From Escherichia coli (GTDB lineage Bacteria > Pseudomonadota > Gammaproteobacteria > Enterobacterales > Enterobacteriaceae): DNA of 64,000 bases. This document shows positions 2,745-8,574 of this stretch, one piece after another. Numbering within the stretch: position 1 is the first letter of the stretch; each line of letters begins with the position of its first letter. Both the position numbers and the translations under genes were made by a program. A model generated the notes under the pieces. The model saw only the letters and a program-made list of their open reading frames with translations, was not told the origin of the DNA and did no database searches. The stretch lies in the NCBI RefSeq assembly GCF_030013205.1, contig NZ_CP122648.1, one strand, 5' to 3'.

Positions 2745-3590
2745 TTATTCATTTAAAGATTCAAGAAATGTCCAGCCTTTATGAGTAACATAATACATTT
2801 GTCCTTTTGCCCCTCTTTCAATCACAAAATCAAAGGATAACAGTTCGTTAAGTGCGCCCTCCCAACGGGCTACCTCTCTAGCCGAACTTCCACCAAAGGA
2901 TTGATTTCCCGCTTGAATATCCGTGCCACCTAAATGCCTTATCACATAAATTGTTCCGCTATCATCGACACATGCTAATTTCAGCAAACTGAGTGCATCG
3001 GCGGACAAATTACTTTCTGGCAAAGATTGACTTGTATTCGCATCAGGAGAATTGTTAATGGTAGATATAAGAGAAGACAAATAAGGGCTACTAGAAATAA
3101 TTATCGAAAGTTGCCTACGGACTTTTTCTTTGAAATCAGATAAGTCATTAAAAGACTCTATCAATCCCTTTTGCATGCACTCAGTTTTGAACAATTTAAG
3201 AGACTCATATTGTTCTCTATCAAGGCTTTCAGGGGCAACAGGCTTTGAGGAAAAGTAAATCATTGCCGGTTTTCCCGCATTCAAATGACGGTGGATTTCT
3301 TCGACTGTTCCGCTGGCCTCGTTCCCAGTCGGTGAGCCTAGACGAGTCCAAAACACACCGATTAATAAATCACAATCTACTAATAATCTTTGATTAATCA
3401 ACTCCTGAGGCCTAACTCCTAATTCGGGTGATGTATGAGTTTCCCATCCAATTGGTGTCAACATTACTTTTGAACGAGCTGAATTTATATCATTCCACTC
3501 ATGGATCATTTCACGAATGACTTGTCTCTCTTCAGCGACATCACCAGGAGAAGCAATCATTACAGGGATAACAGTTGCTGTGTAAGCCAT
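2745..3590 (-). CDS. hypothetical protein with DUF4062-like (TIR/flavodoxin-like) N-terminal domain and unknown C-terminal domain
   Basis: 281-aa ORF; N-terminal motif VIPVMIASPGDVAEERQVIREMI resembles the DUF4062 signature (hydrophobic strand-S-x-D-x-EER) from memory. GGAGAG RBS 7 nt upstream; start is 14 bp downstream of the recombinase stop. Confidence 0.5.
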   Translation of the reverse strand: MAYTATVIPVMIASPGDVAEERQVIREMIHEWNDINSARSKVMLTPIGWETHTSPELGVRPQELINQRLLVDCDLLIGVFWTRLGSPTGNEASGTVEEIHRHLNAGKPAMIYFSSKPVAPESLDREQYESLKLFKTECMQKGLIESFNDLSDFKEKVRRQLSIIISSSPYLSSLISTINNSPDANTSQSLPESNLSADALSLLKLACVDDSGTIYVIRHLGGTDIQAGNQSFGGSSAREVARWEGALNELLSFDFVIERGAKGQMYYVTHKGWTFLESLNE

Positions 3591-3603
3591 AAACTCTCCA
3601 TAT

Positions 3604-4164
3604 TCAATCGGTAATAGCTGCTACAGTCGCTCTTGAAACGCCATATTGACGCGCTAACGCACTGATACTCAAACCGCTATTCTTTTTCTCTAAAATCTCT
3701 CTACGGGCTTCTGACGCGATTTTAGGAGGTCTGCCCAATTTCTTACCTTCGGCTTTTGCTCGTGATAGTCCCGCCTGAGTGCGCTCAATCAGCAGATCAC
3801 GCTCCATCTCCGCAACCGCGGCGAGCATAGATAATAGCAACTTCCCAGCGGCAGAAGTGAGATCTGTGTTACCAAGCTGGTGGACAAGAACCTTGATATT
3901 ACGGTCAGCCAGCGCCCTTACCGTTTGCAAGACGTCAATCGCATCACGCCCCAGACGATCAAGCTTCGCTACCACCAACGTTTCACCATCGCGGATTTTA
4001 TTGAGCATTTCAGAAAATGCTTTACGTTGCATTGCCGGAACCTTCCCGCTAACAACATCGGCAAACCAGTAATCAATTTGCCACCCAGCCTGCCCAAGCT
4101 CCAGCCGTTGGTTCTCAGTATCCTGCTGCGATGTCGAAACACGTCCGTAGCCAAAAGTTGCCAT
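3604..4164 (-). CDS. small serine recombinase (resolvase/DNA invertase family)
   Basis: MATFGYGRVSTSQQD catalytic-Ser N-terminus, ...LDRLGRD..., C-terminal HTH (LSISALARQYGVSRATV). Start at internal Met; the track extension to 4233 precedes the conserved N-terminus. Confidence 0.85.
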   Translation of the reverse strand: MATFGYGRVSTSQQDTENQRLELGQAGWQIDYWFADVVSGKVPAMQRKAFSEMLNKIRDGETLVVAKLDRLGRDAIDVLQTVRALADRNIKVLVHQLGNTDLTSAAGKLLLSMLAAVAEMERDLLIERTQAGLSRAKAEGKKLGRPPKIASEARREILEKKNSGLSISALARQYGVSRATVAAITD

Positions 4165-4355
4165 TGTTATCTCCCCATCTGACCCCTGCCAGAAAACGAG
4201 GCCAACATTAGGATGGCCTGCCAGAAAAGCCAAGGCTATTTTTCCAACAGTGTGAAAGCGTGCGATTGGGAGGTGCCAGAAAACGGTCGTTTGTTGGCGC
4301 TTAAAACGGATAAAGACATGTTAGGCTGAAACCATCACTTCATAAGGACAACCGA

Positions 4356-4823
4356 AATGATTAAAGACGCGATTTTTCACCGTGCGGTCAATATCGCTAC
4401 TCGTTATCACGAGTCTGGGACGAATCAAAACCATATGCCCTTTTCATAGGGCTAAACCCTTCATACGCCGATGCTGAGAAGGATGATCGCACCTTGAGCC
4501 GCTGCATATCGTTTGCCAAAAGCAGGGGCTACGGTGGCGTATACATGGCCAACCTGTTCGCATTCGTTCACACCCAGCGACATGAAATGATGAAAGCGTC
4601 TGATCCCATTGGCAAAGATAACGATAGCCACTTGATACGTCTTGTTAGCGGTGCCGGACTGGTTGTCGCCGCATGGGGAAATGAAGGAAGACACCTCAAA
4701 CGCTCAACGACCGTCCGACAGCTATTGCCAGAGAGCACAATGTGCTTCGTCTTAAACGCTACAGGTGAGCCGAAGCACCCTTTGTATATGAAAAACGACA
4801 GTGTTCTCATACCTTTAGGTTAA
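4356..4823 (+). pseudogene. DUF1643-like gene, apparently frameshifted
   Basis: ATG near 4356 gives MIKDAIFHRAVNIATRYHESGTNQNH... then a stop. A different frame carries the conserved core ...FIGLNPSYADAEKDDRTLSRCISFAKSRGYGGVYMANLFA... through to the stop at 4823. One frame change around 4410-4440 is needed to join them; exact position uncertain by a few nt. Confidence 0.5.
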
Positions 4824-5828
4824 CATCGATAACTGCGTTCAGAATATGAACGCAGCCATATGATATATATGACTTTTCTTTAAAATGATGGTGTGCTAGC
4901 TTCTCTCCTGACACCTACCTCATGCGGTAAACCGGTCCGGGTAGGTGGAGATCACCGCTGTTTAGCGGAAGACGTCAGGATGGGAACTCTGCGTAACGTT
5001 GATTGTGGTAGGTAGGGCGCGCAAGCGTTTGATGCAGCCAAGCAGAGGGTGAAAGTAGCTATCGGCGGATTCTTGAGTAGCTTCTTTTGCGCATAATGCA
5101 TCTTTCAAGAAAGGTCGTCACACCACGAGGAAGACTTGATCTTCATCTGGCAAGGGGAACCGAGCAACCTACAGGCTATCTTCTCAGATGGCCTTATGGT
5201 TGATATGTCCGGCTTCCCCCCCGAGGAAGGGTTTACATCTTAAAGAACAAGTTATGTTTTAACATTTTTAACAATTACACTTCTCTGCTGTTTGGTGTCT
5301 TATGGCGTTGCCGTCAAAAGTAAACCTGCCGTTTTTACCTCTCCTGCGTAACAACCAAATACGAACCAGAAGCTGCTAACGTTCAACGTGTTCGCGGTGT
5401 AAATGCAGCCAGATAAGTTGGGAGCGAAAAAGTGGATGCCCTAGGTTTGGAAGCGCCCCTCTCAGGCATAGCGTCCGAAAATTTCCACGGCGGCAGGCTT
5501 ATCCTTATAGAGCCAAACAGACTCAAAAGTTAAGAAGCGCGGTAAAGCTTAAAGCTCGCCCAGATTTCTCATTGATTGCTCGAACTCCGCTACGCTTGTT
5601 TCAACTGGCTTCGCCAGTCACTCTATGAGAGCGCCGCGAATTCTGCACCATGATTTCGACTACCTTCTTTAAAACACTCGCCAGAGAGCCTTACAGCGCG
5701 TTTGAACCGCATATCGCAGCTTTTGCTTACGGATGACTGTCTGATTAGCAGTAGCTTCATGGCCCAGTCCGGTTTACTTTATTGCTATCAACAAGGGAGC
5801 CGTCCAGAGGCGACGCGGAGATAATGCT

Positions 5829-6161
5829 TTGAGAACCGTCGAGATACTGCAATACACCTTACGCAAAGGCAGCGGTGCCGCTTTTCACGCCATTATGCAG
5901 GAAATCAGTGTTCCCCTACACCAACGCCACGGGATCGATGTTGTTTCGTTTGGTAACTCTCTGCATGACCCGGACTGCTATTACCTGATTCGCGCCTTTG
6001 TCAGCCCTAAAAGCATGACTACGGTTCTCGACGCTTTTTACGCAAGCGATGACTGGCGCAGCGGCCCGCGCGAAGACATCATTGGCAACATAGAGGCCAG
6101 CATTAAAACAGTGATAAATCTACCATCAGAAAGCGTAGAAGGGCTGCGGGTGCAATCGTAG
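5829..6161 (+). CDS. NIPSNAP/dimeric alpha-beta-barrel-like small protein
   Basis: 110 aa, TTG start with GGAG 8 nt upstream. Sequence pattern (EILQYTLRKG...YYLIRAF...DDW) resembles the NIPSNAP family from memory. Confidence 0.5.
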   Translation: MRTVEILQYTLRKGSGAAFHAIMQEISVPLHQRHGIDVVSFGNSLHDPDCYYLIRAFVSPKSMTTVLDAFYASDDWRSGPREDIIGNIEASIKTVINLPSESVEGLRVQS

Positions 6162-6293
6162 GTCATCAAGTTTCACCAAACGTGTTTTGAGCGTCTCCAA
6201 ATTCAGCACTATGAAATCCACCACCCTTAATAAAAAACGCGCCAGGAAGCGTCCCAGCGCATTCAAGCATCACTCAACTGAATAGTAACTGAT

Positions 6294-8246
6294 TCAACCT
6301 GTTTGTTTGCCACGCTTTCTTCGCAACGCATCTCTGACAGCATCCAGCCCGTCAGGAATGTTGAATTCCGCTATATCAGGTAACGAAAAATCAATTTTCT
6401 CCACGACTTCAATCATATGAATTGGTTTGAGGTCTTTGCTATATCGCACTTCCGTTTCAGTTTCGCCGCGCACATGCCCAAGTAGCTGCGCTCGTAATTC
6501 TGAGCTAACGCCCTTCTCCTTGAGCAAAGTCGAAACTGAGTGGCGAAAAGAATGGAAAGATTTGCTTCTGTTCCTCTCGAGTTTCAACCGCCCCGCAAGC
6601 AACGATTCATTGAACCATGCGGAAACTGGCCTACCATAGCCTTTTGTTTTATGTGGTTTAAGCTCCGGGAAGAGACGGGTATACCCTGCATCTTTTAAGG
6701 CGTTCACGTAGTCGATGAAACCGAGACTAATCAGCTTTGAATGGAGCGGAATCTTGCGGCGAGCATTAGCATTTTTGAGTTTCTTTCCGCTTTCATTATC
6801 GCTTTCAAGGTTCAAATAATAGACGCCGTCGTCTGCCAGAACATCACTCAGCAGTAACTGAGCGATTTCATTAACTCGCGCCCCCGTCATCAAGCCCAGC
6901 AAAGGTGCCCAATAGTTAAACGGGCAATATTGATGGAATCGCCCTTGCGCATTGCGTTCAACAGTTCCAGCCTCAAACCACGGTAACGAAAAAATCGCTT
7001 TAATTTCATGCGGTTCAAATATGTCAGTGTGATCCTGATCTCGCTCATCTTTATCATCGGATGGAAAAAAGTTTTCGCATGGCGATTTCAGTAGCTTACC
7101 GTCAGCAACAGCCCACTTCATTGCACCATAAATGCCGTTGATATACTTCCTAACGGATTCCTCAGTCATCAATTTATCGCCGCATTCTGCCGCTTTGGCG
7201 ATTAACTGATCCAGCGTTTTCACTCCATATTTAGCTTTGACTAAATTACGGTTTGCTGGGATCGTGCGCAGTTTGCTCTCATAAGCCCGGAGGAAATCGC
7301 GATCAAAATCTTCCAACTGAATGTCACCCATCGCTTCGATCATAAAGCTGAAATAGTTACGGATATCACTTATAGCCGACTCCGATACCTTGCCCTTGCG
7401 CCGATGCTTTAGATATTCAGAGCATAACCACGACAGATTCTTAGTGTAATACTTTCGATTAACATACTCGTTATCGATAGTAGGGGCAGGAGCGGCAAGA
7501 GGCACGGTAGGATGAACACTAGCGACTGGAGGCGTGGTCTTAGCCAGCCAATCAAGCCTTAGGCTTTCTGCATGGACTTTATTGATCAAAAGCGTATCGG
7601 GTTTAATTACCGGCCAACCGGAGGTGAAAAACCAACCGCCTTTAGCGTCGCTTCCGGCAGTTTTGAACACCGAAGCTTCTGAATAACCGTCGCTAATAAT
7701 GTTACGTAAATGTGCTGGTTGCGCAGTGAGTTGCAGATAGCCTTTAGCAACCCCCTCGATACCCTTCTCTTCGCCATAATTAAGAACGTAACTGCCATCA
7801 AGCGGGTCTAGCTCAGCCTCAGAGAGCGCTGCAACATAAAAGCCAGCCTGCCCCGTCGCCAGCCAGAATACGGGCAGATTACGGTTCATCACCGCCTGTA
7901 TTAATTGCGCAACAGGCAACTCAACTGACTGAGCAAAGTTAGAAAGCGAGATCATACCCTCACCAGCAAGCAGCGGGGCGCAGTCACTTAAAGTTCGATA
8001 ATCCAATTGTTCATACTCTTGTAAGGTCTGATACCAGACCGCCAACAGGAGCGCGGACTTCTGCTTTGCTTCATGAAGATCGTGAGTGCCTGTTGAAGTG
8101 TGAATCTCACACTGTCCTGCGTATCGACGAAAACGTTGGGGAATGCTAATGCGGACAACATAAATGCCGCTGGTTCGACGATAGAGTTTATATCGCTGAG
8201 ACATCGCCTCGTATACCCTTTTGTAAGAGGGGCTACGCGATTTCAA
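6294..8246 (-). CDS. tyrosine-type site-specific integrase (650 aa, unusually long)
   Basis: C-terminal catalytic region HSFRHSVSTLL...LLGH...; lambda-like arm-binding N-terminus (YKLYRRTSGIYVVRISIP); directly adjacent to tRNA-Leu. A ~250-aa central region is of unclear homology. Confidence 0.85.
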   Translation of the reverse strand: MKSRSPSYKRVYEAMSQRYKLYRRTSGIYVVRISIPQRFRRYAGQCEIHTSTGTHDLHEAKQKSALLLAVWYQTLQEYEQLDYRTLSDCAPLLAGEGMISLSNFAQSVELPVAQLIQAVMNRNLPVFWLATGQAGFYVAALSEAELDPLDGSYVLNYGEEKGIEGVAKGYLQLTAQPAHLRNIISDGYSEASVFKTAGSDAKGGWFFTSGWPVIKPDTLLINKVHAESLRLDWLAKTTPPVASVHPTVPLAAPAPTIDNEYVNRKYYTKNLSWLCSEYLKHRRKGKVSESAISDIRNYFSFMIEAMGDIQLEDFDRDFLRAYESKLRTIPANRNLVKAKYGVKTLDQLIAKAAECGDKLMTEESVRKYINGIYGAMKWAVADGKLLKSPCENFFPSDDKDERDQDHTDIFEPHEIKAIFSLPWFEAGTVERNAQGRFHQYCPFNYWAPLLGLMTGARVNEIAQLLLSDVLADDGVYYLNLESDNESGKKLKNANARRKIPLHSKLISLGFIDYVNALKDAGYTRLFPELKPHKTKGYGRPVSAWFNESLLAGRLKLERNRSKSFHSFRHSVSTLLKEKGVSSELRAQLLGHVRGETETEVRYSKDLKPIHMIEVVEKIDFSLPDIAEFNIPDGLDAVRDALRRKRGKQTG

Positions 8247-8294
8247 GCAAAATTATGGATTAAATTGTTTTAAAACAACGACTTAGATAAGACT

Positions 8295-8379
8295 TGGTGC
8301 CGAAGGCCGGACTCGAACCGGCACGTATTTCTACGGTTGATTTTGAATCAACTGCGTCTACCGATTTCGCCACTTCGGC
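8295..8379 (-). tRNA. leuX: tRNA-Leu (CAA), leuX
   Basis: Reverse complement reads GCCGAAGTGGCGAAATCGGTAGACGCAGTTGATTCAAAATCAACCGTAGAAATACGTGCCGGTTCGAGTCCGGCCTTCGGCACCA (85 nt, CAA anticodon, CCA end). Confidence 0.95.
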
Positions 8380-8574
8380 ACTGAAGAGGTATGCGGAAAA
8401 CGTTGTGGATTATACCTGTCGCACGCCACCATGCAAGCGCCAGCTTGCACCCACCTCGCTAAGTGCTGAAATTTTCAGCATTACACTCAGCGATATGTAA
8501 CCTTTGTCACACTCCAGGCACCCCGCCCTGCCATGCTCTACACTTCCCAAACAACACCAGAGAAGGACCCAAAA

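Follow-up and report, generated by a model that had tools for sequence, protein, structure and literature searches.

A one-thymine deletion probably inherited with the leuX island disrupts a DUF1643 gene in Escherichia coli

A gene resembling the DUF1643 family lies in the leuX island of Escherichia coli and appears to be broken in two, which raises the question of where its reading frame was lost and whether the break reflects decay, recoding or an error in the sequence. The first-pass annotation of the locus had left these three causes side by side, proposing that a set of N-terminal codons and the conserved core of the protein lay in different frames. Frame translation of the window (the whole stretch of 64 000 nt that was analysed) placed the gene on the plus strand at 4357–4823; the bounds given earlier, 4356–4823, were right at the end and one base early at the start. 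Translation in frame 1 from the ATG at 4357 gave MIKDAIFHRAVNIATRYHESGTNQNHMPFS and stopped after 30 codons at TAG 4447–4449. A second frame, one base back (frame 3), is open over 4365–4823 and ends at TAA 4821–4823. From 4371 this second frame reads DFSPCGQYRYSLSRVWDESKPYALFIGLNPS, and its translation runs in the order DFSPCGQYRYSLSRVWDESKPYALFIGLNPSYADAEKDD...GYGGVYMANLFA...HPLYMKNDSVLIPLG. The N-terminal signature of the family, FSPCGxYRYxLxRxWD, falls in frame 3 directly after the T5 run at 4373–4377, and the earliest canonical start in that frame is a TTG at 4494. Both parts of FIGLNPSYADAEKDD...GYGGVYMANLFA are in the frame open from 4365 to 4823 and not in that of ATG 4357, which bears out the proposal that the two peptides quoted in the annotation occupy different frames and that one shift is needed to join them.

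Insertion of one T, giving ATT TTT TCA, produced a 155-aa protein that matches the Pfam DUF1643 profile (PF07799) in full (E = 8.8e-42; 142.8 bits against a gathering threshold of 22.5 bits; profile positions 1–134 of 134), and the family assignment, originally made from a motif, is confirmed by this match. As encoded, the longest ORF (109 aa from TTG 4494) covers PF07799 positions 35–134 only (E = 2.7e-24), and the 30-aa frame-1 peptide had no Pfam match of any kind. Alignment with intact homologues, which had been suggested as the way to locate the indel, did so: the nucleotide alignment against intact E. coli alleles contains a single indel, T5 (4373–4377) versus T6. The shift had been expected at about 4400–4450, a misplacement of ~30–70 bases, and the N-terminus had been drawn as 26 codons. 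As the indel lies in the T run, just the seven codons MIKDAIF are the authentic N-terminus, and the remainder, HRAVNIATRYHESGTNQNHMPFS, is out of frame. The features of the locus are collected in Table 1. The hairpin downstream of the stop codon marks a possible transcript end; the terminator scan made no call for it because a T tail is missing, and the promoter and terminator scan of 4100–5000 returned nothing over shuffled expectation.

Table 1. Features of the DUF1643 locus and its surroundings, in window positions
Feature	Position	Strand	Basis or remark
Serine recombinase (resolvase/invertase family), divergent from DUF1643	3604–4164	-	PGAP; Klebsiella counterpart matches Pfam Resolvase
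Shine-Dalgarno-like AAGGA	4344–4348	+	8 nt 5' of ATG; read from sequence; identical in intact alleles
Authentic ATG and first seven codons, MIKDAIF, frame 1	4357–4377	+	Same ATG starts the intact 155-aa CDS of PGAP
T5 homopolymer, site of the one-T deletion and point of frame change	4373–4377	+	T6 in intact alleles; sole indel in alignment
Rest of DUF1643 frame, S8 to G155 plus TAA 4821–4823, frame 3, unlinked from start codon	4377–4823	+	Translation, Pfam, alignment
Out-of-frame read-through HRAVNIATRYHESGTNQNHMPFS, ending at TAG 4447–4449	4378–4449	+	Translation; no Pfam match
W57R lesion, TGG to AGG	4524–4526	+	Nucleotide alignment with intact alleles and family alignment
Perfect 9-bp hairpin CTGCGTTCA / TGAACGCAG, 5-nt loop	4833–4855	+	10 nt 3' of stop; read from sequence, folded
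Island integrase (tyrosine recombinase), adjoining leuX	6294–8204	-	ORF and PGAP annotation
tRNA-Leu(CAA) leuX	8295–8379		Island integration site

We aligned the repaired protein with 35 homologues (36 members in all; 49–97 % identity), which are single ORFs of ~155 aa. Residues A5, S8, C10, Y13, R14, R19 and W21 are invariant in this alignment, and all of these except A5 are encoded by second-frame codons that lie 3' of the T run. The frame-3 translation retains S8, C10, Y13, R14, R19 and W21 together with IGLNPS, G60, N66, W107-G108 and H141-P-L, whilst the nearly invariant W57 is replaced by R. Among phage homologues, at least 80 % of the protein was matched by tblastn in 145 of 146 records, and among the 15 matches listed each consisted of one tblastn piece. 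DUF1643 occurs by itself in Shewanella and Marinobacter, where the contexts are unrelated. Measured against PF07799, a family of mobile elements and phages, the repaired window copy is a full-length match and the copy as encoded is inactivated. Published mentions of DUF1643 are incidental, and our search of the literature found no functional study. They place it, as a small gene, in ccr complexes homologous to those of staphylococcal SCCmec type V, beside SAUGI and DUF960 (PMC10581047; PMC12540322), in the cargo of an ISL3 element (PMC13231603), and among phage ORFs.

Allele counts were obtained by exact matching of 70/71-nt probes across the site in complete E. coli genomes carrying the locus (n=584). 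The T5 allele was present in 296 of these, and T6 alleles in 286, made up of 50 genomes with the type found in strain 510016 and 236 with an O157:H7 type that has two nearby SNPs. PGAP labels the gene 'frameshifted' in all seven T5 annotations examined (K_EC180, Nissle 1917, 300709, ML35, O141:H4, O2:H16 and WCHEC020032). Five of the seven sampled T6 loci are annotated as an intact 155-aa protein and the other two have a nonsense codon; the intact T6 proteins in PGAP are WP_000588537.1, WP_000588536.1, WP_001724293.1 and WP_007866157.1. The first two of these, from strain 510016 and O157:H7, respectively, represent the same gene in the same island slot beside the resolvase (98.7–99.8 % nucleotide identity). 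They differ from the window copy in carrying T6 rather than T5 and W57 rather than R57, and are therefore single 155-aa ORFs. The pseudogene of K_EC180 (IGX36_RS21240) has the same frameshift and frames as the window copy and is 100 % identical to it over window positions 4200–4900, with no difference at all, whereas that of E. coli Nissle 1917 (CIW80_RS16540) has the same frameshift but differs at one base, 4524, and is without W57R.

The history of the deletion was examined in eight loci with T5, one in the window and seven in other genomes, and in seven T6 loci, out of the 584 carrier genomes. Over ~4 kb the T5 loci differ from one another by 0–2 SNPs and constitute one haplotype, to which the nearest T6 haplotype, that of ABW_S38 and 1943, lies 11–13 SNPs away. 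Alleles of the flanking proteins co-vary with the T state, the same alleles surrounding the sampled T5 loci. These comparisons point to a single origin of T5. The shared haplotype fits one deletion event followed by spread with the island, and does not fit recurrent switching. The T5 alleles are mutually too similar for a purifying-selection test of the downstream frame.

We consider it highly probable (about 0.9) that the gene is an inherited pseudogene of the leuX island, in which one T was lost in a single event and the defect was carried into many lineages. Under this explanation, an ancestral 155-aa DUF1643 gene would have lost one T within ATT TTT TCA (Ile6-Phe7-Ser8), and ribosomes starting at ATG 4357 would leave the authentic frame past codon 7 and stop at TAG 4447–4449. 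The product would be a 30-residue peptide, with the other 148 codons left in the -1 frame and no start codon before TTG 4494; with a product of just 30 residues, the DUF1643 domain would not be made. We infer that functional protein is absent from T5 strains. The intact state is probably ancestral on grounds of parsimony, because all outgroups are intact, and the deletion would have arisen once, in one island haplotype, before being carried to many E. coli lineages.

Decay would then have continued after inactivation, with W57R arising in the lineage of the window and an IS3 insertion in another strain. The W57R change results from T to A at 4524 in the window and K_EC180, at a position where at least 90 % of family members keep the same residue, and direct alignment found T (W57) at this position in the Nissle 1917, 510016 and O157:H7 alleles. 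Thirteen other genomes match the window and K_EC180 at 100 % identity over 4200–4900 and probably carry W57R as well; the substitution serves as a lineage marker and speaks for relaxed constraint. An IS3 element additionally splits the T5 pseudogene of strain 300709. Damage is also found on the T6 background, in the form of an independent nonsense mutation, Y59*, in E1739 and AF10, L29R in a core strand in ABW_S38 and 1943, and P139Q, affecting an invariant proline, in E-93. Together, the lesions on both backgrounds indicate that the DUF1643 gene is dispensable in E. coli, where it is possibly even disfavoured. At the E1739 and AF10 loci, the Y59* copy of DUF1643 occupies 3018–3485 (locus coordinates) and the island integrase, from 4954, is likewise interrupted by a stop codon; in these two strains decay seems to extend to the entire island backbone.

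A gene split by one missing T might still be expressed if ribosomes shift back. Programmed or leaky -1 frameshifting on the U run would restore full-length DUF1643 and keep the gene working, perhaps with a low, regulated output. The geometry allows for this, in that a P-site tRNA-Phe slipping from UUU 4375–4377 to UUU 4374–4376 would re-pair perfectly and the next codon, TCA, would give MIKDAIFSPCG, the ancestral protein. All 148 downstream frame-3 codons are still open, and the start codon and Shine-Dalgarno sequence are intact in the T5 allele. However, the zero frame reads GCG AUU UUU CAC, in which an X XXY YYZ heptamer is missing, and just the single tRNA-Phe could re-pair. Nor is the shift conserved, as 286 E. 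coli genomes carry the in-frame T6, each of the 35 homologues in the alignment is read in one frame, and the orthologue in Klebsiella quasipneumoniae (84 % identity) has ATA TTT TCA, lacking a long T run because its Ile6 codon is ATA. The later damage to T5 alleles (W57R, IS3 insertion) also speaks against constraint. The sequence downstream, 4378–4470 (93 nt), has a minimum free energy of -21.2 kcal/mol (z = -1.88), with 10 of 200 shuffles folding as well and just 5–6-bp hairpins in the structure. We judge functional recoding to be very unlikely, whilst an occasional spontaneous -1 slip of tRNA-Phe on the U run may occur and would then restore the ancestral protein at a low level.

Slightly less probable still is reversible phase variation, in which the T run would act as a contingency tract that is on at T6 and off at T5. 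Both states are indeed common (51 % T5 and 49 % T6 among carrier genomes) and the T5 and T6 coding sequences are otherwise almost identical, but a tract of merely 5–6 bases argues against such a switch. All eight sampled T5 loci sit on one haplotype at least 11 SNPs from every sampled T6 locus (15 loci in total), and the flanking protein alleles co-vary with the T state, a pattern better explained by a single mutation than by repeated switching. We also considered an invertible switch operated by the neighbouring resolvase and rejected it, having found no convincing inverted repeats flanking the promoter or the gene.

The chance that translation from the internal TTG at 4494 yields a functional short protein is lower again. 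The 109-aa product would keep PF07799 positions 35–134 (E = 2.7e-24), but would be without the first 46 residues, a part that holds the invariant I-G-L-N-P-S motif and three predicted beta strands. The region upstream of 4494 has no evident Shine-Dalgarno sequence, and among the full-length homologues listed none starts at the corresponding position. Least credible of all, to the point of being negligible, is a homopolymer sequencing or assembly error in a genome that truly has T6: the defect is one base in a T run and homopolymer indels are a common type of error, but 5–6 bases is short for a systematic one, sampled T5 is always found on the same flanking haplotype, and the exact allele occurs in 296 complete genomes that many laboratories produced, Nissle 1917 being represented by two independent assemblies. 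Error is excluded because T5 recurs in hundreds of independent assemblies. The frameshift most probably reflects real decay and not programmed recoding, and it is not a sequencing error; of the causes offered at the outset, the first alone is supported.

The surroundings of the pseudogene were examined for evidence on the island that carries it. An Rfam search of 3500–8600 returned the leuX tRNA and nothing else. The module of resolvase and DUF1643 is common to Klebsiella, with window positions 3614–4877 being 85 % identical to the K. quasipneumoniae locus. The resolvase ORF reaches a TTG at 4233 (3604–4233, minus strand, 209 aa), with the PGAP start at 4164 (186 aa, 561 bp); the 209-aa version would extend the gene into the divergent promoter region. 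A sharp mosaic breakpoint was observed at ~4279–4285, in the intergenic region between resolvase and DUF1643, where identity between island haplotypes is 77–80 % leftward (78–80 % for the resolvase) and ~94–100 % rightward, toward the integrase, and a small hypervariable patch was present at 5463–5549. The pattern is that of a mosaic, with a conserved backbone and a cargo that varies. Candidate defence genes lie on the cargo side. On the minus strand at 2745–3590 is a gene for a 281-aa protein, annotated as DUF4062 in some genomes, that matches the PADLOC model PDC-S60 (E = 5.8e-27); PDC-S60 is a candidate defence model, and the match covers the N-terminal 169 of its 906 positions. K. quasipneumoniae has SIR2_2 and DUF4365 genes at the same place, flanked by the genes for the membrane protein and the resolvase, and this suggests a slot in which defence cargo can be exchanged.

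Downstream of the pseudogene, ~1 kb separates DUF1643 from the NIPSNAP gene (4824–5828) and contains no ORF of more than 50 aa. At the K. quasipneumoniae locus, a 337-aa ORF without a Pfam match (locus positions 6627–7640) directly follows DUF1643; the gap in the window was considered as a decayed copy of this gene and the idea was rejected, since tblastn similarity was absent. Annotation of 4824–5828 was absent in 12 sampled genomes aligned at ≥97 % identity, and in more diverged matches only the adjacent NIPSNAP gene is annotated. The region was found with at least 80 % query coverage in 583 E. coli genomes, at a median of one place per genome. Its first part, 4824–5150 (327 bp), is 99.7–100 % identical between haplotypes that differ by ~20 % in the resolvase, folds better than shuffled sequences (z = -3.2 on the plus strand and -3.9 on the minus strand) and has no Rfam match. 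The region as a whole could be an unrecognised RNA or a regulatory region of the island backbone.

As to what the intact protein might do, AlphaFold2 applied to the alignment of 36 sequences gave a confident model (pLDDT 91.1, pTM 0.89) of a small alpha/beta domain. The G-L-N-P-S that follows predicted strand 27–31 resembles the G-I-N-P-G motif of Mug, and H-P-L-Y near the C-terminus resembles motif B of UDG; members of the uracil-DNA glycosylase superfamily (Mug/TDG, family 4/5 UDG) are likewise small alpha/beta proteins. Comparison of DUF1643 with E. coli Mug and a 17-sequence Mug-family profile by hhalign gave probabilities of 2.2–3.6 %, the best alignment covering 14 motif A columns only, and comparison with Ung gave 0.2 %, none of which is significant. 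PF03167 was absent from a Pfam scan of the 36 members at E ≤ 10, and Foldseek of the model against the PDB returned nothing at E ≤ 0.001. Scores from fold comparison of the model were low, with Toprim, TIR and hydrolase folds scoring equally. Neither the single protein nor the family profile matched a solved structure by sequence, and the repaired protein had no match in PADLOC-DB v2 or NCBIfam. A role as a UDG-like DNA-base-processing enzyme of mobile elements and phages is, in our estimation, unlikely. It is suggested by the GLNPS and HPLY motifs, by the serine recombinases that adjoin DUF1643 here and the UDG inhibitor SAUGI that adjoins it in staphylococcal SCC-type elements, and by its repeated independent loss or damage in E. 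coli (T5 in 296 genomes, Y59*, IS3, L29R, P139Q and W57R). Defence glycosylases of the UDG superfamily do exist, namely Brig1 and Brig2 (PMC11078745; bioRxiv 10.1101/2025.10.29.685425), and the present tests found no tie between these and DUF1643.

In sum, the DUF1643 frameshift is already annotated as a pseudogene in RefSeq and is hence ordinary; what is gained here is the exact placement of the lesion (T6 to T5, 4373–4377) and a corrected N-terminus. The pseudogene occurs in roughly half of the E. coli genomes that have this leuX-island backbone, including the probiotic Nissle 1917, and is of little importance in itself. If the UDG-like reading of the family were true, repeated loss of the gene could mean that its activity burdens the host and is selected against, in place of neutral decay. 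T5 strains are presumably natural DUF1643 nulls that can be set against the intact O157:H7 and 510016-type strains, providing a ready comparison for the role of the family.
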